DNA of 64,000 nucleotides from an uncultured Ruficoccus sp. (GTDB lineage: Bacteria > Verrucomicrobiota > Verrucomicrobiia > Opitutales > Cerasicoccaceae). The position numbers and the translations under genes were made by a program. Below are positions 20,705 to 58,133 of the stretch, piece by piece (the stretch's first letter is position 1; each line of letters begins with the position of its first letter). Where the stretch lies: contig OZ223496.1 in assembly GCA_965140785.1 (NCBI GenBank), forward strand, positions 32,001 to 96,000, in the 5' to 3' direction. Below the pieces are notes generated by a model that was given only the letters and a program-made list of their open reading frames with translations, was not told the DNA's origin and ran no database searches.

Positions 20705-20884
20705 TCAACCTGGCTCAGGTATAGCGTGGCCGCCGGACGGGAAATCCCTAAAATTTTCCTTGAACAGGATGGCGTCCCTCGTGTTGGCCAGTCGGTCGAT
20801 ACTGGGCGTTCGCACGGCCGGATTTTCGCAGCAGCCGACAAAGCTATCGTGCATTATATCGGGGTTGACGAAAATGAAGTTCAT
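20705..20884 (-). pseudogene. Sulfatase N-terminal remnant
   Basis: MNFIFVNPD...VGCCENPAVRTPSIDRLA resembles a sulfatase N-terminus and ends next to the IS. Confidence 0.6.
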
Positions 20885-23109
20885 TGTTGTTTCTCCGCTG
20901 TGAAAAAGGAGCCGACTTGCACCGTTGATCCGGCGTACGGAGCCTGCGGCAGTTCGACCGTTCGCTTGAGTGTCTCGTTCTGCCATGTCATTTCAAGAAT
21001 CAGTCGCTTTTGCCGCTGCGAGGGATCGGCAACCCAGAGGTGAACGTTCTCGTTTTCATCAATCCTGGCGATGATCGCGCAAGCGATATCGGTTTTAATC
21101 CTGAGCGGAAAATCAGCCGCTTCCAGCTCCCCAGGCTCGTAGAAGGCGGCACCCACCCACCGCTTCTGGGAGAGCCATACCGCCTGCAAGGCGGGTGTGT
21201 TAGCGATGATGTCCACTTGCTCGTCAAAAAGGTTTTCGGCTGCGGTGCCCGGCCCCGAGGGACGGACGGCGTAGGCATACTGACTGTTACCAGGGTGGGA
21301 GCCGTGATCGATCCAGAGCGTGAATATTTCGCCCGAAACAGGTGTATCGCTCTGGACCTGGGAAATCTCCCGCCAACTCGAGGAGCGCTGCTCACTGAAA
21401 TAACGAACCGGGTCATTCTCCGGTAACAAGCTATAGCTCAAGGCACCCTGCTCGATGACACCGCCTTGCGGCAGAGTCACTGGCTCTGCGGCCTCCACCG
21501 TTTCCGTGTCGACGGTTACGTCCCCGTTGGCGTAGCACTGGTTGATCGTCGTGTAGACGGGATCATCTCCGGTATAGTTGATACCGGTGCCGAGTGCAAC
21601 CATGAGCCCGTCCGGAAAAAACCAGCCTTTGCGGGCGGACAGATCTCCGCGCTTGAAATCCGCTGCGAAGAGGCCGCTCTCGCCAGTGCTAACACCCCCG
21701 ACGAAGCGGGTTTTGCCCTTGCGTGAGATCACTTTGTTATCCAGCGGAAGTTTCCCGTCCTGAACAATCGTTGTGCCCGGCAACTGCTGCCAGTTCCAAA
21801 GGGGGGCGATACTGACGCTGTTCGTGAAGTACTCCGTGCCGTCGCGCATAAGCATTGTCATGCCGTCTCCCAGGTGGTGTCCCTTGGTGCTCTCCCCGTT
21901 GTGAGCCTTGTCGGTGCTCAGGGTACGGCTGGAGTTCAGGCGGACGGAGGCGTACCAGTCCTGCTCGCGGTTCACCATGATATCGCTGACCCAAAACATG
22001 CGGTTGCCGACCAGCGCGGGCTCGTTGGGCGAGGCTTCGTTGTTCATGCGTTTCCTAAAGTCCACCAGCTCGCCGTGCCGGGGAGTCTCCACCTGGAGCA
22101 TGAAGTTCAGGGGGGCGTCCATCAGGGCCGCTCCGGTATTGCGAGCGATGGAACGTCCCCGCGCATTCAGGTCCACCGCGCCGCCCCAGATCAGCCATTG
22201 CTGGTGGTTGAGCATATAGTCCTCGATCAGGCTCACGCTGGCGTCTGGAAAAGCGTACCTCGTCCCCTGCGTCCAGACGAACCACATCCCGGACCATCGC
22301 GGAAGGCCCTGTCCATAGGAAAGGGTCGCGAGCAGAGGGCCGTGCATCTGGAAACTGTAATCGTGTTGCACCCCTTCCCTGGTCGTCATCCGCATTTCCT
22401 GACTAAAAGTTCGTAGCATGTAGTTAACCAGATCCAGATCATCAAGGAGCAGGCCGAGCATAATCATCGCCTCACACCGCCATATCTTGTTCTGGGAGGT
22501 GTTCATGACCCTTTCCACCCGGAAGTCGGCGGGCCGAACCATCTCCTCGACCAGGCGGATGTCCTCGGCAGTCAGGCCGTCCTGTAGAATAAGTGCCACC
22601 GCCGCCGTATCCCGGGGCTGCTTGATTAGCTTCACATACTTATGCTGGATATCGGGGTGTTTGCGAATCCAGTACCGCAGAGCGCGCAGGCTGGCCTCCC
22701 GTAGCGCGCGTGCTTTTTCCTCGTCCCCCTGCCGACGTGCTGCCAGGGAGGAGACGGCCATCTTGCGCACGCGCTCCATGTGCACGGCTGATTGGCGGAC
22801 GGCTGTGGGGGAAAATGTGTAGTCATTCCAGTTACCTTGCTCGTCCAGGCGGGAGGCCAGGTCCACCGCAGTTGCGATGTCGGCTTCCCGCTCGACCAAG
22901 GTGTTCAGGATGCGATTGATAACCACCTGCTCGTCGTCGAGGTTTTTGCCTGAACCCCGTATCGAATAATTCGGTACAGGGGCGGAATTTTCCGTTGGTG
23001 GTGATGTCGTCTCCGTGACTGAGCGCTCCTGCTTGCATCCGAACAGAAGGCAAAAAGCGAGTAAGATCAGAATTCCTGGCACGTTTGCGCCTATGGTATG
23101 TTTATTCAT
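20881..23109 (-). CDS. Polysaccharide lyase family 8 (chondroitin/hyaluronate lyase-like) lipoprotein
   Basis: Lipobox LFGC; QNKIW, EGVQHDYSFQMHGP..SYG, GRSIAR, WNWQQLPGTT, FVGGVS, WIDHGSHP..YAY. Confidence 0.9.
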   Translation of the reverse strand: MNKHTIGANVPGILILLAFCLLFGCKQERSVTETTSPPTENSAPVPNYSIRGSGKNLDDEQVVINRILNTLVEREADIATAVDLASRLDEQGNWNDYTFSPTAVRQSAVHMERVRKMAVSSLAARRQGDEEKARALREASLRALRYWIRKHPDIQHKYVKLIKQPRDTAAVALILQDGLTAEDIRLVEEMVRPADFRVERVMNTSQNKIWRCEAMIMLGLLLDDLDLVNYMLRTFSQEMRMTTREGVQHDYSFQMHGPLLATLSYGQGLPRWSGMWFVWTQGTRYAFPDASVSLIEDYMLNHQQWLIWGGAVDLNARGRSIARNTGAALMDAPLNFMLQVETPRHGELVDFRKRMNNEASPNEPALVGNRMFWVSDIMVNREQDWYASVRLNSSRTLSTDKAHNGESTKGHHLGDGMTMLMRDGTEYFTNSVSIAPLWNWQQLPGTTIVQDGKLPLDNKVISRKGKTRFVGGVSTGESGLFAADFKRGDLSARKGWFFPDGLMVALGTGINYTGDDPVYTTINQCYANGDVTVDTETVEAAEPVTLPQGGVIEQGALSYSLLPENDPVRYFSEQRSSSWREISQVQSDTPVSGEIFTLWIDHGSHPGNSQYAYAVRPSGPGTAAENLFDEQVDIIANTPALQAVWLSQKRWVGAAFYEPGELEAADFPLRIKTDIACAIIARIDENENVHLWVADPSQRQKRLILEMTWQNETLKRTVELPQAPYAGSTVQVGSFFTAEKQQ

Positions 23110-24842
23110 GATCGGTCCCTTTTTCTTTTTTCAACCCCCAAGAGAACAAGCCCCCGCAGATACCCGCGACTAAAACGATGAGTACGCTAAGGGATATGAT
23201 TGAACGGGCGTCTTTGCAGATAAAAAAGAGCGGCGTCATGCAAAGCCCCAGTGCCAGTCCGAAGCCACCAATGACTCGGGCCTGTTGTCTGTCGTTGCCC
23301 TGCCCGACCTCCCGAGCGAAATCAATCGGTGTTCGCAGCATCGTGAAGAAAGCGTTGATACGTGCGCGCTCCTTGTCGGGACTTTTATTCCAGAATATCC
23401 GCCCCACGAAAAATCCTGTCACACTCATAACGCTGACCCCCAACGCACGCTCTTGGTAGTTCAAGGATTCCTGGCCGAGAAAGGGTGCCAACAGCGAATA
23501 GAGACTGACGGCAAAGCCCAGGCCCATACTGCTGAAAGCCGCCCAGCTTGGTGTCTTGCGATAGATCATCCCCAGCAGCAAGGGGATCGCCAGTGGGAGA
23601 TGAAGCAAAGTAGAGATGATCAAAAGCAGTTCGAAAACGCCGAACGTCCCGAGATTATGATAAAGGAGTGCCAGCAGAATAGAGAAGATCCCGAACAGCA
23701 GGGAAAATATCCGTCCGACACGAACCTCCTCATGGGCACCCAGGCGTTTTTTTTCCGCGCAGGTCGATGATGAAGGGAATGATATTTCTCACGACGATCC
23801 CCGCCGAACGATTGATGCCCGTGTCCATCGAGCTCATGGTAGCTGCCAGCATAGCGACACCCATCAGGCCAAGAAGCTGTGGCGGCAGCCAATGTCTGGC
23901 TGCGACGGCATAGGCGGACTCGGCCGGCGTCACACCGCCGGCGGCTTGCACTTCGTTCCCCAACGCCAGGGCCGACCCCCAGGCCGGGATAAAGATGATG
24001 ACCGGAAAGAGCAGCATCAGCACCAATACCAGACAAGCTGATTTGACCGCTGTCCTGTCGTCCTTCACGGCCAGGAAGCGGACAGACCCTTCGACCGAAC
24101 ATAGCATAATCACCGTGATGGTCATCTGGGCCATCGCCCAGCCAAGGGTGAATTTATCGTCCACGAACGCGCCTGCCGGTTTAAAAAAAGAGTAATCGCT
24201 GGTCGCCGAATGCGTGCTCAGTTCATGGAAAAAACTGGAGGGCCCACCGAAATCGATAAGCACCAGGCTCGAGAGTAGAATCACAATGGAGAAAATGATC
24301 AGGCTCTGGACAAAGTCACTCGCCATGACAGCCCAACTCCCCCCCGAGCAGGCCATCAGCGTGACCACCGCCCCCACCACGACGATGACCAGATTGATGT
24401 CCAGGTCGAAAGCCGATGCGGTAAAGATCCCCATCCCCCACAGCCAGATCCCGGCATGCAGGACGGCGGAGGGTACTTTTATCCATGAATAGACCTGTTG
24501 TGCACCCGTGCCGAATCGCTCTTGAATAATTTCCGGAAGCGTAGCTTTGCGGGTACGCCGGTAACGCTTGGCAAAGTAGATAATCTGACAAAAGGCCCCC
24601 AGCGCGCCAGCCCAGTACACCAGCAGCACAGTCCAGCCCGCGCGGTAGGCCACTCCGCCATTAGCGGTGAAGGTATTGGCACTGAGTCCGGCCATGAAAA
24701 CGCTCATGCCCACCAGCCACCAACTACCCTTGGCCCCGCTTTTGAAAAAATCGTCACCACTTTTGTTCAGGCGAGAGAACGCCAGGCCGATGGCAACCAT
24801 GATGATGAGATAAGCAAGTACGATGAAGATTTCTATGCGCAT
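23102..24842 (-). CDS. Sodium:solute symporter (SSS), +1 frameshift in an A8 run near 23750
   Basis: WWLVGMSVF, LAATMSSMDTGIN; removing one A joins ORFs 23730-24842 and 23102-23623. Paralog of 56406-58133. Confidence 0.88.
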
Positions 24843-25125: not shown

Positions 25126-26124
25126 TCAGGCGAGGATCAGGGATGCTTCGTGGTTGATCGACCAGCGTAGCCTTTCCCCGGCGACGTAACGCTGTAATTC
25201 CTCACTCATATACTGTCCCAAGCGGCGGCGCTCCCCGTGCTTGGCACCGGCGATATGCGGGGTCAGAAAGACGTTCGGAAGATGGAAAAGGGCTGAATGC
25301 GGATCCGGGGGTTCCGGGTCAACGACATCCAGCACAACCGTCAAATCGGGACGGCCTTTCAAAACCTCGATCATTTCATCCTGTTGCACGATCGCCCCGC
25401 GCGCCGTGTTAATAAAGCTGGCGCCGTGCTTCATCATGGCGAAGTGTTCACCGCGGATCATTCCTGTTGTTTGCGACAATAAGGGGGCATGAAGGGAAAC
25501 GCAATCGCAAGTGCGGAAGATCGTCTCGACCGAGGCCGGAGTGACGCCCTGCTCCTGTTCGACCGCTGTAAAAGGACGAATGTCGTAGGCCAGGACCTCC
25601 AGATCAAAGCCCCGCAGCAGATGGCAAACCCGCCGACCAATCATCCCGAGCGAGATGAGCCCCACCTTACTGCCGTAGGCACCGATGCCCTGCCGTTTGC
25701 CTCGCCACAGACCGACATCCCCAGTCATGCATTGGCGTGAGAGCTGCCAGCCGTTTTTCAGGCAAAACAATATCTGTGAGAGCGTGAATTCGGCCACCGG
25801 GATGGCATTGGCCGCGTAGGCGCTGGATACGCCGATGCCACGCTGCCAGGCGGCATCCGTCATCATATCTTTCACTGATCCGGCTGCGTGAAAAATGTAC
25901 TTCAGGCGCGGGGCCGCCGCGAGAAATTCCTCGTCGAGATACGGCGGTCCCCAACTGGAGAAGATGACTTCCACCTCAGCCAGTCGGTCTTTATGCTGTC
26001 GCCAGGTATTGCGTTCCAACCGCTCACCGGTCAACTCCACGTATCGGGTGATTGCTTCGATTTCGACTTCGCCGTAAACAAGCCCCTCCACTTTGGAAGT
26101 ATAAAAAAACAGTCCTTTCAGCAT
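25126..26124 (-). CDS. D-isomer-specific 2-hydroxyacid dehydrogenase
   Basis: HAAGSVK, SLGMIG, INTARG, LDVVDPEP, TPHIAG. Confidence 0.92.
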   Translation of the reverse strand: MLKGLFFYTSKVEGLVYGEVEIEAITRYVELTGERLERNTWRQHKDRLAEVEVIFSSWGPPYLDEEFLAAAPRLKYIFHAAGSVKDMMTDAAWQRGIGVSSAYAANAIPVAEFTLSQILFCLKNGWQLSRQCMTGDVGLWRGKRQGIGAYGSKVGLISLGMIGRRVCHLLRGFDLEVLAYDIRPFTAVEQEQGVTPASVETIFRTCDCVSLHAPLLSQTTGMIRGEHFAMMKHGASFINTARGAIVQQDEMIEVLKGRPDLTVVLDVVDPEPPDPHSALFHLPNVFLTPHIAGAKHGERRRLGQYMSEELQRYVAGERLRWSINHEASLILA

Positions 26125-26259: not shown

Positions 26260-26985
26260 TTATTCATTTCCATCCACCGTCCAGTTTTTGCGATCAGGAA
26301 AAACGTCGGAGCTGAAGGCGGAGCCATCGAAGCGGATGAAGTTCGCGCTCCCGTCATAGGAAGCCCTGATCGGTATACCCGGATAACCTTCCCCGAGCAT
26401 TGGTTGGCCGCCGAAATCGGCGACGCTTGTGCCGAGGTGCCAGTTGGTTCCATCGGCGCTGGCAAAGACGATGGAAGTGCTGGTGATGTCGCTTAGTTTG
26501 GGGTTACCTATGCGGCTGCCATCCCCTTTCAGGGGGCCCCGGTAGCCGCTGGAGAAATAGGTACCAGCCACCAGATAGTTGATGGCGTAGCCAATCTTTT
26601 TTCTGTCCTCGACATAGACATCATAGCTGGGTCCGGGTGACAGCACCGTATTTTCTGGAAGTGTATCGTAGTCCAGAAACATTGAATACTGATTCTCCGG
26701 AAAAGTGAGCGAAAGATATTTCGAAAGCTTGCCAGGCCAATGGCGTTGATAACGCTGGCCCTCATTGGTCGAGCCCGGCACCGGTTCGTTGTTGTTGTCT
26801 TGAGAGGCGAGCATCCAGGCCGAGTGAATTTGACGAAGATTGGCGACGTCGCGGGAGGAGGCGAGCCGAACGCGCACACCGCTCAAGGCGGGTATAACTA
26901 TCGCAAGCAGTATCGCGATGACGGCAACAACAACAAGCAATTCAGTAAGACTGAATGCCGGTTTGCGGGGAGGGCTTGGCAACAT
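26260..26985 (-). CDS. Prepilin-type N-terminal cleavage/methylation protein (DUF1559/H-X9-DG-like)
   Basis: A|FSLTELLVVVAVIAILLAIVIP, NLRQI, C-terminal Y-X9-DG. Confidence 0.88.
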   Translation of the reverse strand: MLPSPPRKPAFSLTELLVVVAVIAILLAIVIPALSGVRVRLASSRDVANLRQIHSAWMLASQDNNNEPVPGSTNEGQRYQRHWPGKLSKYLSLTFPENQYSMFLDYDTLPENTVLSPGPSYDVYVEDRKKIGYAINYLVAGTYFSSGYRGPLKGDGSRIGNPKLSDITSTSIVFASADGTNWHLGTSVADFGGQPMLGEGYPGIPIRASYDGSANFIRFDGSAFSSDVFPDRKNWTVDGNE

Positions 26986-27030
26986 GAACAGCAATCTGAT
27001 TTATAGCTTTCAGACCTGCAATCCCGGTGG

Positions 27031-27257: not shown

Positions 27258-28148
27258 ATGACAATGAGAACCACTACCCTCACCGCTATCGTATTTACCG
27301 TGGCCTGTGCCACACAGGCTGACACCGTTACTCAAATTGGTGATAACGATACAACCGGCCAGAATTGGAACGACACCGGAGCCGACTGGAGTAATGAAGA
27401 GCCAGCCAGCCCTGGCAACGACTATATCTCCTCCGGAGGCTTCATCCTGCGTACGACCTATCTGGTCAACTCAACCTTCGCCGGCGATTCCCTGACTGTC
27501 GAGAATGGAAGCACGTTGCAGTTGCGTCAGGGCGTGGGTAACACTTCCACCGTTTCAAATCTCATTCTTAACGACGGAGCGATAATTGCCCAGGCCAGCG
27601 GCAACGGTGTCCTCACCCTGGATGGAGGAACCCTCACCGTTGGTACCGGAACCGCAGATCTCACCGTCGACAACAACCGTGGCATCATGCTTGAGTTCGA
27701 CTCACTCGCGGGGGACGGATTACTAAAATTCAACCGCAGCGGCACAGGCGCAGACATCTCCGACAATTCAATCAGTATCGATGACGCTTCCTCTTTTACC
27801 GGCACGATACAAGTTTCCTTCGGAGATCTCGAGTTTTCCGCTTCGGGCACGGGCGATTACAACCAGGCGGAATTTATTATTAATAATAGCGCCTATGCAA
27901 CAGCCACGATAACGCTCAGTCGTAGCATTACTGTCAGTTCACTGTATTTCACCGACACCGAAACATACGTGGACCCGGGAACATATACCACGACCGAGTT
28001 GAATGCTATTTCCGGCGAAAGCACTTTCAGCGGAGTGGGAACCCTGACGCTCATTCCTGAACCGCGTGAGATGTCTCTTTGGTGCGGCGGGCTGGTTTTG
28101 GGAATGATCGTGCTTCAGGTGCGCCGCCGCATGCATCCGAAGGGATAG
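27258..28148 (+). CDS. PEP-CTERM sorting-domain surface protein
   Basis: Signal peptide, Thr/Gly/Ser-rich beta-type body, IPEP + TM + RRR tail. Confidence 0.88.
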   Translation: MTMRTTTLTAIVFTVACATQADTVTQIGDNDTTGQNWNDTGADWSNEEPASPGNDYISSGGFILRTTYLVNSTFAGDSLTVENGSTLQLRQGVGNTSTVSNLILNDGAIIAQASGNGVLTLDGGTLTVGTGTADLTVDNNRGIMLEFDSLAGDGLLKFNRSGTGADISDNSISIDDASSFTGTIQVSFGDLEFSASGTGDYNQAEFIINNSAYATATITLSRSITVSSLYFTDTETYVDPGTYTTTELNAISGESTFSGVGTLTLIPEPREMSLWCGGLVLGMIVLQVRRRMHPKG

Positions 28149-28173: not shown

Positions 28174-28200
28174 AGCCTGCCCGTTTGGGCGGGCTTTTTT
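28174..28200 (+). terminator. Rho-independent terminator
   Basis: agcctgccc-gttt-gggcgggct followed by a T run. Confidence 0.75.
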
Positions 28201-30655: not shown

Positions 30656-30684
30656 GTGGGCAAAGGATTTTATGGATGCAGCTT

Positions 30685-45020: not shown

Positions 45021-45095
45021 TGCTAATCAGGATTGCAGGTCTATTTCCAAAGTGAAATGACTATCCATGTGCTGAAGACTGCCTGTCGGCCTGGA

Positions 45096-45700: not shown

Positions 45701-46036
45701 ACAATGGTCGATGGGACTTTTTTTCAGGGCGCAACCACCTACGCCAAGCCCCGCGCAAAGTAAGCAGCGGGGGTTTAGAACGGAGCAGGCTGCGGCACAA
45801 ACACTTCACCGTTTTACGGTAAAACAAAAACCGTCATTTGAGCCGCTGTGTTTGCCGTCCCCTTCACCCTTAGGATAATGGGGACAAACGCATGTATGGG
45901 ATGACTCAGCAGAGACGACCGGCTCCAGGGGAACCACCTCTTCCAGCCAGTGTAAGCACGCCCCTCATAACCTCCTGGATGCGCCAAGACTCACCGCACT
46001 AACCCGCCGGTAACGCTTCTATTTTGGCGACGCACG

Positions 46037-47419: not shown

Positions 47420-47476
47420 ACGTATACTGACTAGATGAAGAAAAATACCAAACGCTCAGCAGGTTAGCAATGCTGT

Positions 47477-48550: not shown

Positions 48551-48571
48551 AAGGCGTAAGAAAGTCTCTGG

Positions 48572-49177: not shown

Positions 49178-49214
49178 AGTCGGTCTCCTTGCGGCTGTGG
49201 ACACGGCAACTGAA

Positions 49215-50672
49215 CTAGCGCCTCTGATAACGGCGCCGGCCGATGAATACGGCCAATCCACCCAACCCTGCCAGCAGTGCGCCCACCGTGGAAGGCTCCG
49301 GGATGGCGCTGACCGTGAACTGCAGCAGGTTGCCGTCACCGCCATAGCTGAAGGTCCCGTCCCAACCGGCCAGGCTGCTGTCCTCGGACAAGGTAAAGGA
49401 ACTCAACGCGATGCCCTGCTCGGTGCCGCCAAAGCTGATCAGGTCGTAAGTCTCGCCGATCACAATGCCGCCCGTGTTGGTGAAGGTAAAGGCGATGCTC
49501 TCCGCTCCTCCCGAGGCTGCCCCCGTCATGGACGCGCTGGAGAGAACGATGTTATCCTGATCGGTGCCCAGGCGGAACTGGATGGTGGCCTGCCCTGCAA
49601 AGACCAGCCCCGTGGAGGTTCCGTCACCACCGGCGAGCGTCATCGTACCCGTCGAATTAGCCGTCCCGGCCTGGAGGATGCCCCCGTCCTGAATCGTGAC
49701 GTTGCTCAATGCCGTGGTGGACAGGGTGATGGTTCCGTTAACGCCGAGCAGTGCACCGTCGCCCACCAGATAATTCCCTTGCCCGGAGACGCCCGAGAAG
49801 CCCGTGCCGTAAGTACCGTCAAAATAGAGCTTCCCGCCCTCGACGGTGGTGGCTCCGGTGTAGCCGCCGTTGCCACTAATGGCCAGCGTACCCGTTCCCG
49901 CCTTGGTAAAGGCCAGGATATGGTCCGAGCGGAGCACGTTTTCCCCCAGTGTGCCGCTGAAGGTCGTGTTGGTGGCCTGATCGACCTTCAAGGTCCGCGT
50001 GCCACCCGTGACCGAATACTGTCCCTGGAATTTCCAGATGCCGTTACCAGAGAGCTCCCCGATGGTAACGGTCCCATTGGCCGTTCCGCTACCCATTTCC
50101 AGCAGACCGCCGCTGGCCAGGTGAACCTTGGTCTGCGTGCCGGTCATGTTCGTCCCCCCCGAGATATTACCGTTGATGGTGAGAGCCACGGTGGATGTTT
50201 CTGAACCGTTCACGGTCAGCGTGCCGTCCCAGGGAGTCGTGCCATTGAGGAAAAGTCGCAGCGAGGTGCCCCCCTGCGTGCGATCGTCGCGCAGCGTGAT
50301 GTCCCCACTTCCACCCGTGCCGATACTCAGGCCGCGACCCGTACTGGTGGTGCCCGAGGCATAAAGTGTCACACCATTTTGCACGGTGACCGTGCCGGCG
50401 CTCACATTCCAAGTCTGTATCTCAGGGGAGACGGACTCGATAATCGCATTGCTGCCGTTCGACCAGGGAGTGTCGGTCGGGCCGCCTGAGGTGGCAGCCC
50501 AGGGAGTGGAGGAGGTGGCCGTTGTCCAGTCTCCCGTGCCTCCCGTCCAGTAGAGATCAGCCGCCTGCGAGGCGATCGTGCAGGTTAAGACAAACGTCGC
50601 GAATATGCCAACGCAACGGCTGAGGTTTCCAATCCGAGTGAGCTTATGGTGAGTCGGGGTATTCATGTTCAT
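49215..50672 (-). CDS. PEP-CTERM protein with autotransporter-associated beta-strand repeat
   Basis: FTKAGTGTLAISGNGGYTGATTVEGGKL repeat; IPEPST + TM + RRRYQRR. Confidence 0.9.
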   Translation of the reverse strand: MNMNTPTHHKLTRIGNLSRCVGIFATFVLTCTIASQAADLYWTGGTGDWTTATSSTPWAATSGGPTDTPWSNGSNAIIESVSPEIQTWNVSAGTVTVQNGVTLYASGTTSTGRGLSIGTGGSGDITLRDDRTQGGTSLRLFLNGTTPWDGTLTVNGSETSTVALTINGNISGGTNMTGTQTKVHLASGGLLEMGSGTANGTVTIGELSGNGIWKFQGQYSVTGGTRTLKVDQATNTTFSGTLGENVLRSDHILAFTKAGTGTLAISGNGGYTGATTVEGGKLYFDGTYGTGFSGVSGQGNYLVGDGALLGVNGTITLSTTALSNVTIQDGGILQAGTANSTGTMTLAGGDGTSTGLVFAGQATIQFRLGTDQDNIVLSSASMTGAASGGAESIAFTFTNTGGIVIGETYDLISFGGTEQGIALSSFTLSEDSSLAGWDGTFSYGGDGNLLQFTVSAIPEPSTVGALLAGLGGLAVFIGRRRYQRR

Positions 50673-50773
50673 GGCTGCATTATTCGCCACGTGGGCTGAA
50701 AAACAAACTCACCGCTAGTAACACAGTTTTCCTCGTTCGAGGTATTCTTCCCGGGGATGGAATAACTGCTTAG

Positions 50774-51856
50774 TCACCGCTTAGCGGCTTTACGGACTGT
50801 CCGGGATGATCCCCGCGTTTTTTGTCGGGAGAGAGCGGGCAGCGTGCTGCCGGGGATCCATTTACCCTCGATTAATATCCGCTGCGGAACTTCTGGCACG
50901 CCACATTCCCCCCGCTGCATCATGGCCACCAAAAAATCGACTGCCGCCTCGCCCACCTCCCGGGAGTTCTCATAGACTCCGGATAGGGGCTGGCCGAGGG
51001 TCCCAAGAAGCGGGCAGGCCACACTAATGTCCTCAGGGATACGCACATGCGCGTCCTTCATCATGTCATAGACATCCTCGCTGACGATCACGGCATCAGC
51101 CTTCGTTGCGGTGATCCAGCCCAGAAACTCCTCCCGCTTCCACTGCGTCAGGCTGAGGGGCATGACGAGCGCCTCCTCCTCGTGCAGCAGCGTATCGGCC
51201 AGGTAGGCCGCCAGCGCATTGTGATTGATCCGCGCATCCTGAAACCGGGTCGTGGCAAAGCCAATCCGGCGATACCCCAGGCGTCGCACCTGCTCGATCG
51301 TCTTCAACGTCGCGCGGTACTGCGTAGCGGTCACACAATGCAACTCAGGACTGGTGAGGGTGTAGCCAAAGGTTACCGCGGAAAATCCCTCCCAGGGGAA
51401 GTCGATACTTGTATCCGGCTGGGCCTGCGGCGCCACCAGCAGGCCGCGGATATTGCGCGCGCGCAAGATGCCCGACAGTCGACGGGGAGACATCTTGGGC
51501 GTCTGCAATTCGAAGGTTTCAAGGGCGTAGCCATAGCTTTTGGCGCAAGCGGCGGCGCCCTCGTAGTAGCTCTGAAAGGTCGGGTAGTCCTGCCAGTCAA
51601 AGGGAGTGATGTTATTTGAGAGCCAGGCCAGCACTCCCTGAAAGGAACGCGTACGCTTCTGGTTGCGGTAGGCGGCCAGCGCCGACAGCATCGGATCGGG
51701 CGTGTAGCCGAGCCTTGTCGCAATCTTATGAATGCGCTTTCGTGTCTTTTCTGGAATCTTGGGGTGATTCTGCAGGGCCAGACAGACCGTGGTCCGGTGA
51801 ACCCCGGCGATCTCGGATATCTCCTGCTGGGTGACGCGACGCGGTTGCTGGTTCAC
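50774..51856 (-). CDS. LacI-family transcriptional regulator
   Basis: VTQQEISEIAGVHRTTVCLALQNHPKI...LGYTPDP. GTG start inferred. Confidence 0.9.
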   Translation of the reverse strand: MNQQPRRVTQQEISEIAGVHRTTVCLALQNHPKIPEKTRKRIHKIATRLGYTPDPMLSALAAYRNQKRTRSFQGVLAWLSNNITPFDWQDYPTFQSYYEGAAACAKSYGYALETFELQTPKMSPRRLSGILRARNIRGLLVAPQAQPDTSIDFPWEGFSAVTFGYTLTSPELHCVTATQYRATLKTIEQVRRLGYRRIGFATTRFQDARINHNALAAYLADTLLHEEEALVMPLSLTQWKREEFLGWITATKADAVIVSEDVYDMMKDAHVRIPEDISVACPLLGTLGQPLSGVYENSREVGEAAVDFLVAMMQRGECGVPEVPQRILIEGKWIPGSTLPALSRQKTRGSSRTVRKAAKR

Positions 51857-51948
51857 ATGTGTTACCCATCGCCGGATTGAAAGCCTGTCAAGAATATCTA
51901 GCTTTGTGACAGATAACCGATATTCTCTCCCTACCCCCAAACGTTAAG

Positions 51949-52664
51949 ATGTTGTCCACCCCCCTCCCTCTTTCCGGCGTCCCTCAGCACAGTCCCGGCG
52001 ACCGCCATCGGGCGCTTGCCACCTGTGCGCCCCGACCCGCCTTTACCCTGGTCGAATTGCTGACCGCCCTGGCGCTTATCGCCATTCTGGCCGCGATCCT
52101 CATTCCGGCCATCAGCACGATACATTCGCGCGCAGCACAGGTTAAGTGTGCTGCCAAGATGCGCAACCTGTACCAGGCGGTGAACATTTACCAGACGAAG
52201 AACCGCGGCCAACTGCCTCCCAATCACGCCCACTCGGGAGGGTCTTCCGACGTGGTCTGGAGTATCGTGCTGCGGCCTTATCTGGAGATTGAAGACATGA
52301 ATGCCTACGGGCCACAGACAGAGCAGATGCTGGAGCAGCTGACCTGCCCGGCGGTGGAAGAATCGGAACGCCCGGACAAGTGGTGGGATCCAACTACGCC
52401 GCGGGGACTTGTTTCGGGACGGACGGTGTCGCCCGCAACATCAATGACCTCTATATAAATCCCGGCAATGTTCTCATGTTTGTTGAAAGCAGCCAGCAAA
52501 GCCGCTCCCTCTACCGCACGCCACGCCCCTGGACAACCATCGGCTATCACCATGACGGAAAAGCCAATCTCATTTTTCTCGATGGTCATTTGGAGCAGCG
52601 CTCCGCAGCGGAGATTCCGGAGTCGCTGGACGCTGAACTCTGGGGCCTGAACGAGGCCCAGTGA
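51949..52664 (+). CDS. Prepilin-type / H-X9-DG protein, -1 frameshift near 52386
   Basis: A|FTLVELLTALALIAILAAILIP, LTCPA; C-terminal HDGKANLIFLDGH in the adjacent frame. Confidence 0.85.
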
Positions 52665-52688
52665 CCTCCCATCCACTTCCCTTTTTTT

Positions 52689-53960
52689 ATGTCAATGAAC
52701 TGCGGCAAAAATAACCTGTGCCTGCTTTTAGCGATTCTCGGCGCGATCTGTTTACAGACGCTGCCGAGTGCAGCCCGAAACATCGTTGGCAATCCGGATT
52801 TTGAAAACATACGCCCCGATGGAGCACCGGCAGACTGGATCTTCTTTTTCCCGTCCGCCTCCAGCGGCCTGTCGCGGGCCGGTGAATCCGATTTTACCAT
52901 CGAACAGGGAGATGCTCCCGAACGCGCACATACACTCCGTATTTCCTCGGTTCAGCCCGTGCGGGCCTCCTTGCAACAGTCAGACCTGCCGCTGAAGCCG
53001 GGGCAGACGCTGCGGTTCTCCGTCTGGATGAAAGGCGAGGGGCTGGAGGTATCGTCCCGTCAGGGAGGCTGGGCACGCCTGATCTTCAGCAACCGTCACC
53101 ACCGCGACTGGCAGTCCGAACTGGACGCCTCCACCGTTTACTTAAAATCTCCGCAGAGTGATTTCGACTGGACGCTTTTGGAAGCCGAAGTATCCGTGCC
53201 GGACAAGGCCGATCGCATGACCCTCGATCTGTTCCTGTGGAAAACAAGCGGCACCGTCTGGTACGCCCAGCCGTCCGTGACAGTTCTCGCGGGTCCGCCC
53301 AACCCCCCGGACGCCACCGGAGACAGCAGCGGGTTGGACACCTTCGCGGCGGCCAACAAAGCTTTGTTGGAGAAAGCGACGAAAGAGCCGGAGGTCGTGT
53401 TTATGGGTGACTCCATCACGCACCGCTGGAATCTGCGCGAATACTTTCCGGGAAAAGATTGGGTCAACCGCGGTATCAGCGGACAGGCAACCTCCCAAAT
53501 GCTAGATCGTTTCGCGGACGATGTTCTCCAGCTAAAGCCCCGCGCAGTGGTTATCCTGGCGGGCACCAACGATATCGCCAACGGCATCTCCAACGAAGCC
53601 ATCACCGCCAACATCGCGGCCATGATCTCGCAGGCGCAGGCTGAGGGAATCCAGCCCGTTGTCTTGGCCGTCCTTCCGGTTTCTGATTATCACGCCGCCG
53701 ATAATCCCTACTTCCGGGCCTCTGACCGACGTCCCCGGGCCGTCATCCTGGACCTTAACCGGCGATTGGAGTCCCTCTGCCGGACAAAAGACGTCCCCTT
53801 CGTGGACCTCTATACAATCGCGGCGGATAACAGCGGACAAATCCCGGCTGACTGGGCCGACGATGGCCTCCACCCGAACGCCCTCGGTTACGCAGCGATT
53901 TCACCCACGGTCGGCGAGGCTGTGGAAGCGGCCCTCTCCGGCAGATCGACGAACCTGTAA
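52689..53960 (+). CDS. Secreted CBM-like + SGNH/GDSL esterase
   Basis: NPDFE jelly-roll N-terminus; FMGDSIT, NRGISG, GTND, DGLHPN. Confidence 0.88.
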   Translation: MSMNCGKNNLCLLLAILGAICLQTLPSAARNIVGNPDFENIRPDGAPADWIFFFPSASSGLSRAGESDFTIEQGDAPERAHTLRISSVQPVRASLQQSDLPLKPGQTLRFSVWMKGEGLEVSSRQGGWARLIFSNRHHRDWQSELDASTVYLKSPQSDFDWTLLEAEVSVPDKADRMTLDLFLWKTSGTVWYAQPSVTVLAGPPNPPDATGDSSGLDTFAAANKALLEKATKEPEVVFMGDSITHRWNLREYFPGKDWVNRGISGQATSQMLDRFADDVLQLKPRAVVILAGTNDIANGISNEAITANIAAMISQAQAEGIQPVVLAVLPVSDYHAADNPYFRASDRRPRAVILDLNRRLESLCRTKDVPFVDLYTIAADNSGQIPADWADDGLHPNALGYAAISPTVGEAVEAALSGRSTNL

Positions 53961-53981
53961 AACAGAATCCAAACTTTGAAG

Positions 53982-56396
53982 ATGATGCTCCCATTTATCC
54001 CCCAGTCGCTCCGGGCCAGTGGCCGACGTGCTCACCTGTGCGCCGCCATCCTGGCGCTCACGGTTAGCGGCACGGCACATGCGCAGGAACATGCGGCGAC
54101 GCCGGTTATCCAACGCGATGAGGTCAAAGCCTACCGCGCCGCCCACGAGCCCGCCTGGCGGGAAAAGATTCGGAACCATGAAAGCTGGCTCTTCTATACG
54201 GATGAGGAATGGCCGAACGTCATCCAACGGGTTCAGGAGCTAGACGGCCAGGGCGCACATTGGCGCGAAGTTTTTTTCGAAGCGGCGGACACCATTGTGG
54301 ATAATGAAATCCGTTCCTTCGAGGAGTATTACAAGCCCGACGACATTAAACAGGAATGGCAACGGGAAGTGGGAGATGACCTGTGCTCCATAGCGGTTGC
54401 CGCCAAACTGAGCGATGATCCCAGCTACCGTGAAAAGCTGCGCGAGCTCGTGCTGGCGGTCTGCGACTACCCCAGTTGGGGCCAGCACAATAACGACCTC
54501 GCCGCGGGGCATGTCGCCAGCGGTCTGGCCGTGGCCTACGACTGGCATAAGGACTTGTTCTCCGATGAGGAAAGGGAGCAAATCCGTCAGGTCGTCAGCC
54601 AGCGAGTCCCGGCCATTCTGCGCGCGCTGCTCGGTCAGATGTATTGGCAAAACACCTACACCTGGAATCATAACCAGATCAGCGTCGCCGGAATGGGACT
54701 GGCGGGCCTGGCTTTCCTTGACGAAATTCCCGAAGCGGGCGACTGGCTGGCCGGTGCCTTGCTGGACTATGAAAGGGTCGGCAAGTATTCCTCCCCCGAC
54801 GGGAGCTCCTGCGAGGGGCTCGGCTACTGGACCTATGGCCGGAGCTTTATCTTAAAATTTATCGAAGGCACCAAAGGTGTCACCGATTCGGGGAATTTGT
54901 ACGAGCTGCCTTTCCTGCGCAACGCCATCCGCTTCCGCCTGGCTTCCTCCACCCCGGGCTATCACCTCGTGCTCAAATGGGCCGACGGCCAGGGCTATGA
55001 CTTTCGCGGCCCGCAGCAGATCCTCTATCGCCTCGCCGCCGAGTACCGCGACGGCCAAGGGCAATACCTGGCCGACCACCTGCCTTTCCCGCCCCATCAC
55101 GGCCCGACCTCCGAAGCCTTTGCCTGGACGCTCCTGTGGTACGACCCCAGCGTTCCGGAAACACCGCCGGATTTCCTCAACTACCGCGCGCCGGACTGGG
55201 AGATCATCACCAGCCGCAGCGGTTGGGGCGAGGGTGATTACATGCTTTCCATCAAAGCCGGGCTGAATAACGACGCCCACAGCCATCTGGACGCCGGCGC
55301 GATCGCTTTCATCATGGGTCAGCGCTGGATGCTCTCGACCCCGGGCTACGGACTGGGAGACGGACGGCCCGGGTTCTGGGACCGCGACGGCGGGCGGTGG
55401 AAATTTTTCTCCAACAGCAGCGAGTCGCACTCGACACTACTCATCAACGGCAAAAACCAACGCTACCTGCCCTATGATGAAGCCGGTAGCCAGGTGGATA
55501 CCTATCTGGCCAGTCCGCGCACCCTCTGGGCCGAAGTGGATCTGAATAACGCCTATGATGATGTGACGAATATCCGCCGCACGGTCTTTCACCGCATCGA
55601 CAAGTACGTACTCGTGCTCGACCAGATCGACGCCGAAGATATCTTCTCGGTGGAGTGGCTGGCCCAGGTAGATCCCTACGCGCACATTCGCGCCTCCGAC
55701 GGCGAGCTCCACGTCAGCGATGCAGTTGGCAGCATGCGCCTGACCCTGCTCAACCCCGATATGCCCTTCCAGGAACGCGCTCCCAAGAGTCCCTATTACG
55801 ATTTGAAACCGCCCCGCCTCATCCGCACCTATGCCGCCGAGGCCGAGGGTATGTCCGTGCGCCTGGCGGCTTTGCTTCAGCCGACCTTTCGCGATGCGGA
55901 TGGCACGCCCATCGACGCCGAGCTCAGCGACACGGATGGAGTCGTGCATGTCGAACTGTCCGGCCCCGACTGGCAGGACGCCATCTGGCAATCCGATGAC
56001 AGCCGCCAACTGGGGACGGAGACCGTGTCCGCGCAGGCACGTGCGCTGGCTGTGTTTGACGAAGAGGACATGGGGGAAGGGCTGGTCGCCACCGGGGCCA
56101 CCCGGATAGTGAGCCCCACTCTCCAACTGCACTCGGAAGCGCCCGTTGATGCGATGGTCACGGCTGCGCCAGATGGCAGCGCGTTGCTGACCATTTCGAA
56201 AAACACGACGGTCACTCTTCAACTCCGGCCAGGGCTTCGCCTATATCGCCTTGATGGTGAACCCATCGATACGAATAAGGCGGTGCCCGGCGGGGAGTAT
56301 CTGGTGGCTGCTGATGCCGCCGCCCTGGCCTCGACCAAGGCATGGGTACGCTCCCTCGTCGAAACCGCCCGCAGTATCCCCGGTAAAAACCAATAG
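53982..56396 (+). CDS. Heparinase II/III-like oligosaccharide lyase
   Basis: Signal peptide, YDW, WNHNQ, DGSSCEGLGYWTYG, HSHLDAG, HSTLLING. Confidence 0.82.
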   Translation: MMLPFIPQSLRASGRRAHLCAAILALTVSGTAHAQEHAATPVIQRDEVKAYRAAHEPAWREKIRNHESWLFYTDEEWPNVIQRVQELDGQGAHWREVFFEAADTIVDNEIRSFEEYYKPDDIKQEWQREVGDDLCSIAVAAKLSDDPSYREKLRELVLAVCDYPSWGQHNNDLAAGHVASGLAVAYDWHKDLFSDEEREQIRQVVSQRVPAILRALLGQMYWQNTYTWNHNQISVAGMGLAGLAFLDEIPEAGDWLAGALLDYERVGKYSSPDGSSCEGLGYWTYGRSFILKFIEGTKGVTDSGNLYELPFLRNAIRFRLASSTPGYHLVLKWADGQGYDFRGPQQILYRLAAEYRDGQGQYLADHLPFPPHHGPTSEAFAWTLLWYDPSVPETPPDFLNYRAPDWEIITSRSGWGEGDYMLSIKAGLNNDAHSHLDAGAIAFIMGQRWMLSTPGYGLGDGRPGFWDRDGGRWKFFSNSSESHSTLLINGKNQRYLPYDEAGSQVDTYLASPRTLWAEVDLNNAYDDVTNIRRTVFHRIDKYVLVLDQIDAEDIFSVEWLAQVDPYAHIRASDGELHVSDAVGSMRLTLLNPDMPFQERAPKSPYYDLKPPRLIRTYAAEAEGMSVRLAALLQPTFRDADGTPIDAELSDTDGVVHVELSGPDWQDAIWQSDDSRQLGTETVSAQARALAVFDEEDMGEGLVATGATRIVSPTLQLHSEAPVDAMVTAAPDGSALLTISKNTTVTLQLRPGLRLYRLDGEPIDTNKAVPGGEYLVAADAAALASTKAWVRSLVETARSIPGKNQ

Positions 56397-56405
56397 CTCA
56401 ACCAC

Positions 56406-58133
56406 ATGAATTGGACGGACTGGCTAACCCTGGCCATATACTTTGTTTTCCTCATCGGGCTCGGGCTCTACTTTCGCGGCAAAAACAAGAACGTCAGTGA
56501 CTACTTCCGGGGCGGCTGTCAGGCCACATGGTGGATGGTCGGTTCGAGTATCTTCATGTCGTCCTTCAGTGCCTGGACTTTCACGGGCGCAGCCGGAGTG
56601 GCTTACGAGGCGGGCTTGAGCGTGGCCATTATCTTTCTGGCCAACGCCACCGGCTTCTTCATCCACTTCCTCTTTATGGGGCCCTGGATGCGGCAACTGC
56701 GGGCCATCACGGCTCCTGAAGTTATCCGGGACCGCTTCGGCCCGGTCACGCAGCAGTTAATCGCTTACCTGTCCGTCCCGCTTTTCCTGCTCTTTGCCGC
56801 CCTGGCCCTGTACGGGCTGGCCGTTTTCTGTTCGACGATTTTCGGCCTGCCCATCATCCCGGTCATTGTCACGGTCGGGATCGTCGTGCTCTTCTACGCC
56901 TCGCTGGGTGGCGTATGGGGGGTGCTCTCGACCGACTTTCTGCAGGGGCTGGTGCTCTTTCCGCTCACCATTCTGATGGCGGCGCTATGCCTGTACAAAC
57001 TCGGTGGCCTCGATGGCTTCCTCGCGGCGATTCACGATCAGGGCTTGAGCAGTGACTTCCGGATTTTCAAAGCCCCCGGCGAATTCCCCCACAACGCCTA
57101 CACGCACGCCTGGGCGGCCGGTATTTTCATCCAAATGCTCATCGGCTATAACACAATGGATTCGGCGGTACGCTACTTCTCAGTCAAGGACGGACGGTCC
57201 GCCCGCCTGGCCGGTATGCTGGCCTGCGTTCTCACGCTCATCGGGGCCGCCGTATGGTTCATCCCGCCCATGACCGGACGCCTGATCTTCGCCGGACAAA
57301 TCGATGCCATGTCCATTGCCAAGCCCGCCGAGGCGTCCTATGCACTCACGAGCATGGCCCTGCTGCCCAACGGCCTGACCGGACTGATGATGGTCGCGGT
57401 GTTCGCCGCCACCATGAGCAGCATGGACACCGGTTTGAACAAGAACGCCGCCATCTTCACCCAGGACATCTACCCGGCGCTCTGCCGACTGTTCAATAAA
57501 AAGCCGCTGGAGAACAAAGCCCGCCTGCTGCTGGGCGAGTGCTTCACGGTATTTCTCGGTATCGTCATCATCGGGATGGCCCTCTACTTCAGCCAAAGGA
57601 ATGGAGCGGGCATGTTTGAGGCCATGCTATCCATTCTCACGCTGCTGGTTCTGCCCATGGCTGTCCCCACCTTCCTCGGTTTCTTTTTCCGCAAGGTCCC
57701 CGCGTATACCGCCATCGTCTCCATGATCGGGGGCCTGACCGTCTCCACGCTGTCCTTTTTCAGTGAAACGCTGGGCATGGAGCCCTGGTCGACCCAGAAA
57801 AACGTCTTGTGGGTCAGCCTGAGCGCCAGCGTGTTCTTCTTTGCCTGTCGATTAGGCTGGCGAGGGACCAGTGCCGCATATCGTGAGCAAGTCGACCGGT
57901 TCTTCATCCGCATGCACAAGCCGGTCAACTACGCCGAAGAAGTCGGGGAGGACAGCGATAAAAGCCAGTTGGGCGTCATGGGCGGCATCTCGTGTATCCT
58001 GGCTGGCCTGATCGCCCTGACCCTGCTCTACCCGAATCCGCCGGCCAATCGTCTGGCGATTCTTTTCCTGAGCGCTTTCATCGCCGCGATTGGCGCACTG
58101 ATGCTGTGGCGTTCGCGTGTAGACAGCCAGTGA
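56406..58133 (+). CDS. Sodium:solute symporter (SSS)
   Basis: DYFRGG..WWMVGSSIFMSSFSAWTFTG, FAATMSSMDTGLN; multi-TM. Confidence 0.92.
   Translation: MNWTDWLTLAIYFVFLIGLGLYFRGKNKNVSDYFRGGCQATWWMVGSSIFMSSFSAWTFTGAAGVAYEAGLSVAIIFLANATGFFIHFLFMGPWMRQLRAITAPEVIRDRFGPVTQQLIAYLSVPLFLLFAALALYGLAVFCSTIFGLPIIPVIVTVGIVVLFYASLGGVWGVLSTDFLQGLVLFPLTILMAALCLYKLGGLDGFLAAIHDQGLSSDFRIFKAPGEFPHNAYTHAWAAGIFIQMLIGYNTMDSAVRYFSVKDGRSARLAGMLACVLTLIGAAVWFIPPMTGRLIFAGQIDAMSIAKPAEASYALTSMALLPNGLTGLMMVAVFAATMSSMDTGLNKNAAIFTQDIYPALCRLFNKKPLENKARLLLGECFTVFLGIVIIGMALYFSQRNGAGMFEAMLSILTLLVLPMAVPTFLGFFFRKVPAYTAIVSMIGGLTVSTLSFFSETLGMEPWSTQKNVLWVSLSASVFFFACRLGWRGTSAAYREQVDRFFIRMHKPVNYAEEVGEDSDKSQLGVMGGISCILAGLIALTLLYPNPPANRLAILFLSAFIAAIGALMLWRSRVDSQ

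Follow-up and report, generated by a model that had tools for sequence, protein, structure and literature searches.

SusC/D-free glycan-utilization loci with prepilin-type and PEP-CTERM-type genes recur throughout the genome of an uncultured Ruficoccus sp.

Introduction

Verrucomicrobiota and Planctomycetota play a major part in breaking down recalcitrant glycans from algae and plants. For metagenome-assembled genomes of Verrucomicrobiota, the available text of PMC8857213 reports no SusCD and names the outer-membrane route as an open question. For Planctomycetes, a review (PMC12078418) summarizes, in its available part, the proposal of Boedeker et al. 2017 that "fishing-rod" pili serve polysaccharide uptake. 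A proteomic study of the Opitutales isolate Verruconatronum alginivorum (PMC13274419, AEM 2026) places a pulG-like pseudopilin in the alginate-induced cluster pgaptmp_000047-60; according to its available text, the pseudopilin family has 67 paralogues in that genome, a second pseudopilin was also induced, the cluster block is horizontally exchanged, and the authors propose export of the alginases by a type II secretion system (T2SS). We describe here three gene modules (A, B, and C) in a 64,000-nt stretch of DNA from an uncultured Ruficoccus sp. of the order Opitutales (assembly GCA_965140785.1, contig OZ223496.1, positions 32,001 to 96,000), hereafter the window, each of which joins genes for glycan degradation to a prepilin-type gene and a PEP-CTERM-type gene.

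SusC/D-free clusters resembling polysaccharide utilization loci (PULs) and an induced cluster pseudopilin are already in print. The literature searched holds no account of a recurring PEP-CTERM partner, of co-location statistics, or of an integrative island carrying two such modules. No paper tying prepilin-type and PEP-CTERM genes to glycan loci was found, most subscription journals lying outside the search, and searches on combinations of DUF1559, H-X9-DG, and PEP-CTERM returned no functional study.

Modules in the window

The open reading frames (ORFs) of the window (n = 31) were scanned with Pfam and NCBIfam, and leader peptides were judged by eye. The initial annotation, made from the sequence alone, had given a parts list for each module, and these lists were borne out by the family matches. 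The features are as follows, with match values in brackets.

Module A
20881-23109, minus strand: PL8 polysaccharide lyase with a lipoprotein-type leader (Lyase_8 9.4e-63 plus N- and C-terminal domains; leader ...LLFGC by eye)
23102-24842, minus strand: sodium:solute symporter (SSS), in at least three frames in the assembly (SSF 2.3e-29 on 23730-24842 only)
25126-26124, minus strand: D-2-hydroxyacid dehydrogenase (2-Hacid_dh_C 4.4e-44)
26260-26994, minus strand: prepilin-type protein with a variant H-X9-DG-like tail (N_methyl 1.8e-05, TIGR02532)
27258-28148, plus strand: PEP-CTERM-type protein (PEP-A) with a parallel beta-helix body (TIGR02595 matches among relatives; structure model)
28199-29269, minus strand: LacI-family regulator (LacI HTH 1.3e-10)

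Module B
29363-30847, minus strand: lyase-like protein 1, PF05426 (Alginate_lyase, 5.2e-20)
30685-34296, minus strand: GH106 alpha-L-rhamnosidase (1.7e-174)
34320-35720, minus strand: sulfatase with no leader visible by eye (Sulfatase 1.3e-51)
35806-36816, minus strand: D-2-hydroxyacid dehydrogenase (4.8e-44)
36852-37614, minus strand: prepilin-type gene, frameshifted, with its N-part at 36985-37614 and its C-part in the frame of 36852-37316 (N_methyl 1.2e-07)
37639-38913, minus strand: PF05426 lyase-like protein 2 with a Sec leader by eye (1.2e-22)
38931-40022, minus strand: regulator with GntR-HTH and Peripla_BP_3 domains (Pfam)
40274-41077, plus strand: secreted protein (PEP-B) with a degenerate PEP-CTERM-like tail, an orphan (tail by eye)

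Module C
46037-47419, minus strand: GH1 without a leader (1e-167)
47477-48550, minus strand: D-2-hydroxyacid dehydrogenase (5.4e-33)
48572-49345, minus strand: small secreted protein with weak CBM4_9 similarity (CBM_4_9 1.7e-4, below cut-off)
49215-50690, minus strand: PEP-CTERM protein with a PATR beta-strand repeat (PF07589 5.2e-05, PATR, TIGR02595, TIGR02601)
50774-51940, minus strand: LacI-family regulator (LacI 2.3e-09, Peripla_BP_3)
51949-52664, plus strand: H-X9-DG prepilin-type gene, in two frames in the assembly (N_methyl 7.3e-06)
52689-53960, plus strand: GDSL esterase with a weak CBM-like N-terminus (Lipase_GDSL_2 4.9e-32)
53976-56396, plus strand: heparinase II/III-like lyase (Hepar_II_III_C 1.9e-09, DUF4962)
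56406-58133, plus strand: SSS, intact (SSF 6.5e-39)

Common to the three modules are carbohydrate-active enzymes (CAZymes), a LacI/GntR regulator, a 2-hydroxyacid dehydrogenase, a prepilin-type gene, and a PEP-CTERM-type gene. By coordinates, the last is divergent from the prepilin operon in 3/3 modules, as had been annotated. The reported absence of a TonB-dependent receptor and of SusD from the modules also held, with 0/31 ORFs matching Plug, TonB_dep_Rec, or SusD. Sec or lipoprotein leaders were seen by eye on the lyases, the esterase, GH106, and a GH26 protein beyond module C, and none on GH1, the sulfatase, or the three dehydrogenases, which makes the mixed outside/inside layout expected of a utilization locus. 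The maximal ORFs of the module C LacI and prepilin genes start 8 nt apart on opposite strands (50774-51949); the true starts are probably internal, and a short divergent control region shared by the two genes would then remain.

Recurrence in the genome

The genome searched was a 4.36-Mb draft in 50 contigs with a GC content of ~0.60 (G000). It gave 66 N_methyl, 42 or more PEP-CTERM, and 55 LacI matches, together with 30 SSF matches in ~23 genes, 3 TonB Plug matches, and 1 SusD match. The SusD match and 2/3 Plug matches lie on contig C9 (GC 0.39, contaminant-like). Contigs of odd GC content were C9 (44 kb, GC 0.39), C28, C41, and C44 (GC 0.28-0.40), which are probably contamination from a Bacteroidota-like organism and to be excluded from SusC/D counts. 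Modules A, B, and C are three of ~48 such loci in the genome; the "thrice-repeated" module of the initial annotation is indeed repeated, and the number given was too low.

Co-location was compared with 1000 random placements. LacI matches lay within 10 kb of an N_methyl match in 29/55 cases (12.7 ± 3.2 expected, maximum 23), N_methyl within 3 kb of PEP-CTERM in 11/66 (3.7 ± 1.8 expected, maximum 10), and SSS within 6 kb of LacI in 12/23 (3.2 expected, maximum 9). Codon-based calling gave 3463 genes, with 60 prepilin genes called and 10 more hidden Markov model (HMM) matches without a called gene; the PEP-type genes (n = 93) were 41 from HMM matches and 52 by tail regular expression alone. A PEP-type gene was the immediate neighbour of 15/60 prepilin genes, against a chance expectation of ~3 (arithmetic, 93 among 3463 genes), and lay within three genes of 28/60. 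Among the 15 adjacent pairs, 10 were PEP-then-prepilin on the same strand with gaps of 3-230 nt (some only 3-4 nt), 3 were divergent (module A being one of them), 1 was prepilin-then-PEP, and 1 was convergent. The divergent layout stressed by the initial annotation is a minority form genome-wide.

The surroundings of 45 solo-prepilin loci outside the window were classified by reading their Pfam tables, six tandem pilin operons (L019, L020, L024, L025, L039, L044) and two single short pilins without an H-X9-DG tail (L010, L043) having been excluded. The control was 20 random seeded genes with their ±3 neighbours, and tests were Fisher one-sided. A CAZyme or sulfatase was present at 29/45 prepilin loci (31 with two BNR/LamG-only loci) and at 8/20 random loci (p = 0.059); with two prepilin-adjoining loci removed, the control was 6/18 (p = 0.025). 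A LacI regulator, or a GntR or AraC regulator with a periplasmic-binding-protein (PBP) domain, was present at 21/45 prepilin and 2/20 random loci (p = 0.0035), and any sugar context at 36/45 and 9/20 (p = 0.006). The regulator enrichment is a stronger signal than the CAZyme enrichment.

By the context survey and the placement tests together, the prepilin and PEP-CTERM genes are enriched next to CAZymes, if modestly. They recur beside CAZymes, LacI-type regulators, and SSS genes, in line with the SusC/D-free glycan-utilization architecture read earlier from the window. The modules are SusC/D-free, LacI/GntR-controlled glycan-utilization loci of a kind common throughout the genome. Two loci nearly repeat the parts of the window: L037 has a 2-hydroxyacid dehydrogenase, a prepilin, a PEP gene, a PF05426 lyase, and a PBP regulator, and L022 has a heparinase-like lyase, a sulfatase, a prepilin, and a 2-hydroxyacid dehydrogenase. 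The contig of L022 (G000:C20:39557-59555) has a GC content of 0.47, clearly below that of the genome, and the locus may be another mobile element or plasmid with the same module type.

At L016 (G000:C13:22667-42665; genes 9560-14011), a prepilin-type protein of 293 aa, an unassigned protein of 454 aa, and a PEP-CTERM protein of 258 aa adjoin a HemS/ChuX haem-degrading gene; the lack of an evident secreted enzyme at this locus speaks for uptake rather than secretion. In two further non-sugar contexts, longer prepilin-type genes (293-300 aa) stand with PEP-CTERM genes, at L052 (G000:C48:350277-370275) beside a Fur regulator and at L045 (G000:C47:63614-83612) beside genes for AhpC/thioredoxin reductase and for a trypsin-like protease.

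The machinery that the initial annotation had supposed to be shared is encoded in the genome, with one prepilin peptidase (Peptidase_A24), seven T2SSE-type ATPases, and five secretins. Exosortase gave four matches at three loci, one of them split.

The pilin-like family

The N-terminal class III signal (G/A|F-x-x-x-E and a hydrophobic helix; PF07963, TIGR02532) is present in the prepilins of modules A, B, and C, all of which are above the cut-offs of both models. An alignment of 40 sequences (prepilin A, 36 G000 paralogues, and 3 sequences from relatives) gave the consensus GFSLIELL.VIAVIA...SNLRQIG.A..LY..DH.G..P...CP...H....N.LF.DGHV, in which neither Glu5 of the mature pilin nor the DG-motif Asp varies. 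The family shares with the H-X9-DG/DUF1559 proteins (TIGR04294, PF07596 "SBP_bac_10") the N-terminal cleavage/methylation motif, the stretch SNLRQIG...LY..DH.G..P, and the C-terminal H..N.LF.DGHV, and like them it is hugely expanded; unlike them, the proteins here are shorter (~210-300 aa), and they are distant. Among paralogues and relatives, 1/8 passed the TIGR04294 cut-off and 1/9 that of PF07596. Prepilins A and B matched neither model, and the C-terminal fragment of the module C prepilin reached 12.8 bits against a cut-off of 19 in the H-X9-DG/DUF1559 model search. The H-X9-DG motif itself is present in module C only (HHDGKANLIFLDGH); A and B have the variant Y/..FxRFDGSAF, with Y in place of H. 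A tail of the form [hydrophobic]2-D-[GW]-[SH] was found by regular expression in 33/57 called prepilin genes outside the window and in 4 more by eye.

A whole-protein match to T2SS pseudopilins was not reached: TIGR01710 gave 21-40 bits against 88.85, over the N-terminal helix only, and the window and paralogue prepilins were below the cut-offs of the GspH and GspI models. The AlphaFold model of prepilin A (predicted local distance difference test score, pLDDT, 76.5) has a long N-terminal helix (13-63, ~50 residues) and a small sheet of short strands. In a VIA search with this model, the top 15 rows were all type IV pilins or pseudopilins with weak Z of 3.4-5.4 (PilA4 5.4, EpsG 5.1, PulG 4.0). 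The model and the shared motifs are consistent, if weakly, with the locus pilins being distant, short H-X9-DG/DUF1559 relatives with a pilin-like fold.

A word-indexed homologue search with prepilin A returned itself and one weak match. The profile of the 40-sequence alignment, searched in 41 genomes of the order (overall range 1-69 matches), found 61 matches in G000, 37-69 in four congeners, and 7-59 per genome in the remaining genera of the family. Outside that family, genomes of the order gave 1-22, except for one with 63, and genomes of 0.8-2 Mb gave 1-8.

PEP-CTERM-type proteins

PEP-CTERM proteins are generally tied to exopolysaccharide and surface functions. The PEP-CTERM label given earlier to all three modules stands for module C (PF07589, TIGR02595), and the proteins of A and B are below both models, though the family of A reaches TIGR02595. 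PEP-A ends in IPEP..TM..RRR; among 1.84 billion representatives it has 219 relatives at E ≤ 1e-3, of which 15/50 match TIGR02595, with the consensus tail VPEPS...RRRR. A search of 150 further genomes from the order gave no relative of PEP-A at E ≤ 1e-25. The tail of PEP-B, judged by eye, is degenerate (APES, a hydrophobic stretch, and few basic residues); PEP-B had no Pfam or NCBIfam match, and a word-indexed homologue search returned only PEP-B itself.

The PEP-A model (pLDDT 90) is a right-handed parallel beta-helix. Its best VIA matches were tapirin-type cellulose-binding adhesin domains of Caldicellulosiruptor (Z 12.3 for 4wa0, then 11.4 and 10.7), followed by yeast adhesins and then by tailspikes, pectate and alginate lyases, and autotransporter passengers; Foldseek against the PDB with the same model gave none at E ≤ 1e-3. 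Other PEP-CTERM proteins beside prepilins carry Laminin_G_3 (LamG) or CBM4_9 domains. From the model and the repeat match, the PEP-CTERM bodies (beta-helix in A, PATR repeats in C) look like glycan binders. A 21-member PEP-CTERM family was considered as a dedicated pilin partner and rejected, being held together partly by the shared tail, with heterogeneous bodies.

A tRNA-Leu island with modules A and B

The initial annotation had overlooked that modules A and B lie on a mobile island and are partly decayed. The features of the island are as follows.

14940-14982, plus strand: attL-like 43-nt direct repeat (copy of the 5' part of tRNA-Leu), left end of the island (exact repeat of 44935-44977)
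19330-20699, plus strand: IS3-family insertion sequence, copy 1 (1370 nt; transposase fragment matches NF033516)
41206-42575, plus strand: IS3-family insertion sequence, copy 2 (2 mismatches to copy 1)
43784-44932, minus strand: tyrosine integrase of the island, abutting the tRNA (Phage_integrase 1.6e-17)
44936-45020, plus strand: tRNA-Leu(CAA), its first 42 nt (44936-44977) within the attR-like repeat 44935-44977 (ARAGORN)

From the tRNA-Leu(CAA), the 43-nt repeat of its start, the adjoining integrase, and a deviant GC content (0.52-0.59 between the repeats, 0.61-0.64 to the left, and 0.59-0.64 to the right), positions 14983-44934 are a tRNA-Leu integrative island of ~30 kb that holds modules A and B. 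In the congeners G002 and G004, an intact tRNA-Leu(CAA) directly follows the orthologue of 14148-14810, which is an empty left junction; the right flank of the island is not syntenic in these two genomes, so that only the left junction is. Module C is outside the island. For each enzyme set, the island carries one pilin gene and one PEP gene.

By sequence identity, modules A and B are paralogous: their dehydrogenase genes share 69% nt identity over 300 nt, their lyase-like genes 70% nt identity over 155 nt, and their pilins 50% aa identity over 153 aa. The two IS3 copies bracket modules A and B in direct orientation inside the island, and the ends of copy 1 read TGTCTGAG...CTCAGACA. A composite transposon was considered and set aside; target-site duplications support neither independent insertion nor composite transposition, and the bracketing is a description of layout only. 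Besides modules A and B, the island carries at 15505-19236 a thioredoxin/ResA-like protein and two proteins without an assigned function, one of 450 aa and one of 313 aa; the 313-aa protein has a signal peptide. In one contig of public run X1 (depth 14.7), 40078 is followed by 15 other letters and then by 44942, near the attR/tRNA start; this join could be the tRNA context of another organism or an alternative form of the island.

Frameshifts and public read contigs

Modules A and B appear to have begun to decay. The SSS of module A has stops in the continuation after the match at 23730-24842 and occupies at least three frames in the deposited assembly; an intact 584-aa homologue, 73% identical, is encoded on metagenome contig L109. 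The C-part of the module B prepilin is in another frame (36852-37316) and carries RAPYNGQANFVRFDGSAF, like module A. Contigs of public runs X1 and X2 were compared over 36500-56400. An independently assembled X1 contig is identical to the window over 36500-41235, so the frame break of the module B prepilin stands.

The C-terminal part of the module C prepilin (52380-52664) is in a second frame and carries the H-X9-DG motif given above. Contigs of both runs have one extra A behind 52387, which joins the gene into a single frame; the break reflects either the assembly or a difference between strains, and the gene is probably intact. The deposited assembly thus has at least one single-base indel (52387), and other apparent frameshifts, among them several split SSS and LacI matches genome-wide, may be errors too.

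Conservation in relatives

Homologues of the module C lyase were found in 8/41 genomes including G000, the full-length ones at 40-46% identity. In nine fetched lyase-homologue regions, an H-X9-DG prepilin stood directly upstream in three (L070, L071, L072) and elsewhere in one (L069), and a PEP-CTERM gene was within the region in 6/9. A one-to-one co-evolution of pilin subfamily and enzyme family was considered and rejected: the tail type of the module C pilin differs by eye from that of the pilins beside lyase homologues in relatives.

Two overlapping metagenome contigs, L109 and L110, carry homologues of module A all in one direction, with identities to the window of 53% for PEP-A, 63% for the 2-hydroxyacid dehydrogenase, 73% for the intact SSS, and 47% for PL8; they also carry a sulfatase that is not a close copy of that in the window. 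On L110, ~6.8 kb upstream, lies the best known relative of prepilin A, with 38% identity over 232 aa and the variant tail kept; another PEP-CTERM gene directly follows it. By this gene content, the enzyme set of module A and the pilin/PEP genes are kept together across organisms.

Other features of the window

The initial annotation had placed a PilX/GspK-like cassette at 61.7-64 kb, and this was not borne out. ORF 61708-62517 had no Pfam or NCBIfam match. The 1090-aa ORF that starts at 62493 and leaves the window had as its only match 26.1 bits with Verru_Chthon cassette protein A (TIGR02600), against a cut-off of 332.3 and over positions 1-59 only, and its part within the window had no Pfam or NCBIfam match. 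The C-terminal half of the GH26 protein (58415-61630, minus strand, 1071 aa) contains a 540-nt repeat in three tandem copies that span 58430-60035; the copies are 60-80% identical, and the repeat domain has no family match.

Discussion

The reading of these loci that we tentatively prefer is one of capture and import, in which a surface PEP-CTERM binder and the locus pilin would couple the glycan to periplasmic entry and the SSS would import the products; we regard it as slightly less likely than not. Surface glycan-binding proteins play such a capture role in Bacteroidota. The PEP-CTERM protein would be sorted to the cell surface by exosortase and bind the polysaccharide of the locus. The locus pilin-like protein would be cleaved by the single prepilin peptidase, enter a shared type IV pilus or type II secretion-like apparatus as a substrate-specific subunit, and link capture to transport: the bound glycan, or what the first cuts release from it, would pass a secretin and so reach the periplasm. 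Further cutting would fall to the secreted enzymes (lyases, esterases, and hydrolases). The SSS symporter would import the products, GH1, the sulfatase, and the 2-hydroxyacid dehydrogenase would complete the breakdown in the cytoplasm, and the LacI/GntR repressor would sense a product. The pilin/PEP pair would then be a portable, substrate-specific plug-in standing in for SusC/D or TonB-dependent uptake.

A wider form of this proposal is that an H-X9-DG-type pilin and a PEP-CTERM protein make up a portable capture-and-translocation cassette that works on one shared peptidase/secretin/ATPase apparatus, replaces TonB-dependent uptake in PVC bacteria for dozens of glycans and for haem, and moves between genomes with the matching enzymes, as on the tRNA-Leu island. 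In this generality we regard it as doubtful.

Several observations weigh against capture and import. Pilin and PEP-CTERM binding, localization, processing, and uptake are inferred only. PEP-A matches 93 chains at Z ≥ 8, so that only its fold class is established, and a beta-helix fold is no proof of glycan binding; the pilin fold matches are weak (Z < 8), with none at E ≤ 1e-3 by Foldseek against the PDB. No PEP-type gene lies within three genes of 32/60 prepilin genes, and 9/45 surveyed loci are without sugar context (L014, which is ambiguous, L015, L016, L034, L035, L042, L045, L051, and L052). With CAZymes so dense in this genome, their enrichment at prepilin loci is modest, only ~1.6- to 2-fold, and borderline; the scans behind it were unequal, the first 15 loci having been taken with ±4 genes at E ≤ 1e-8 and later batches with ±3 genes at E ≤ 1e-10. 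The lyase regions of genus g6 (L074-L076) keep the PEP-CTERM gene, and a motif search gave no prepilin there. In the window, the module B pilin and the module A SSS are broken and the tail of PEP-B is degenerate, and at least two of the three modules may not be working as proposed.

The strongest competitor, which we consider rather unlikely, makes the locus pilins cargo-specific pseudopilins through which a shared T2SS would export the enzymes of each locus, the PEP-CTERM protein being one more exported surface protein and import proceeding by porins. It accords with the N-terminal 50-60 residues, for which GspG (TIGR01710) is the best or near-best match in several paralogues, with the secretins and GspE-type ATPases encoded, and with the Sec or lipoprotein leaders seen by eye on most module lyases and esterases. 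The authors of PMC13274419, in its available text, favour enzyme export by T2SS and not import, which also counts against our preferred reading. Yet none of the proteins reached a whole-protein match to GspG-K (21-40 bits against 88.85 for TIGR01710), the pair at L016 stands beside a haem-degradation gene with no secreted enzyme evident, and in a genome with almost no TonB-dependent receptors the import route for oligomers would be the missing piece.

Adhesion alone is less probable still. The pilin-like and PEP-CTERM proteins would attach the cell to a polysaccharide or particle, in the manner of tapirins and type IV pili in Caldicellulosiruptor, and have no part in translocation, as might be expected from the general link of PEP-CTERM proteins to exopolysaccharide and surface functions and from the best structural matches of PEP-A, which are tapirin-type, yeast, and bacterial adhesins; tapirins are encoded beside a type IV pilus locus, according to the available text of bioRxiv 10.1101/359786. 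Attachment does not account, however, for a separate pilin paralogue at each locus where substrates are soluble, for PEP and prepilin genes being so tightly coupled in that order (gaps of 3-4 nt), or for the pair beside the haem-degradation gene, and it leaves the missing outer-membrane import route unexplained.

The least probable explanation is that there is no functional link and that numerous, fast-duplicating prepilin and PEP-CTERM genes pile up in variable, CAZyme-rich, horizontally exchanged regions, for which speak the high background (a CAZyme or sulfatase at 8/20 random loci), the borderline CAZyme enrichment (p = 0.059), the varying gene order and orientation, the broken copies in the window, and the 9/45 loci without sugar context, but which is hard to square with the strong enrichment of LacI-type regulators (21/45 against 2/20, p = 0.0035, and likewise in the placement tests), with PEP/prepilin adjacency at 15/60 where ~3 are expected, with an arrangement kept at 38-73% protein identity in another organism and in relatives, and with the substrate-induced expression described in the available text of PMC13274419.

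With these data, two huge "unknown" paralogue families become concrete, testable candidates, with one pilin-like gene and one surface-anchored binder per locus, and the travel of two such pairs with their enzymes on a mobile island argues for a substrate-specific pair that is self-sufficient given the host machinery. If the capture-and-import reading is right, Gram-negative bacteria have a second general design by which to acquire glycans, and possibly haem, and the H-X9-DG/DUF1559 and PEP-CTERM genes, which number in the thousands, would gain an annotation rule. Should the reading prove wrong, the pattern keeps its use for marking PUL-like loci in Verrucomicrobiota and Planctomycetota.

Comparison with known systems

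The V. alginivorum cluster, as described in the available text of PMC13274419, is like the loci here in being a CAZyme cluster with one member of a large pseudopilin family, in a genome with an SSF symporter and PL8/PL-type lyases. It differs in that this text makes no mention of PEP-CTERM proteins and reports TonB components, and the two are likened by description only.

The fishing-rod hypothesis, as given in the available part of PMC12078418, likewise assigns polysaccharide uptake in PVC bacteria without SusC/D to dedicated pilin-like proteins, which would bind the polymer whole and draw it into the periplasm. It is a cell-biological hypothesis built on dextran uptake and crateriform structures, whereas the locus-embedded pilin paralogues and PEP-CTERM partners of the loci here do not figure in that part of the review.

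Caldicellulosiruptor tapirins resemble PEP-A in being non-catalytic beta-helix surface proteins genetically linked to pilin genes in a polysaccharide degrader, and they bind polysaccharide (bioRxiv 10.1101/359786, available text); the fold match of PEP-A to tapirins is not above the general beta-helix background. Unlike the organism here, Caldicellulosiruptor is Gram-positive, without a PEP-CTERM anchor, and has a single tapirin locus beside one pilus operon, where the genome here has a pair for each CAZyme locus.

The PULs of Bacteroidota are a parallel in layout: CAZymes, both secreted and intracellular, are grouped there with a dedicated regulator, a transporter of the inner membrane, and a surface binder that is not catalytic, one set per glycan, and some PULs are on mobile elements. 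Unlike those PULs, the loci described here are without SusC/SusD, in the window and in the genome proper, have LacI/GntR regulators, and carry prepilin-type and PEP-CTERM genes in the "envelope" slots.

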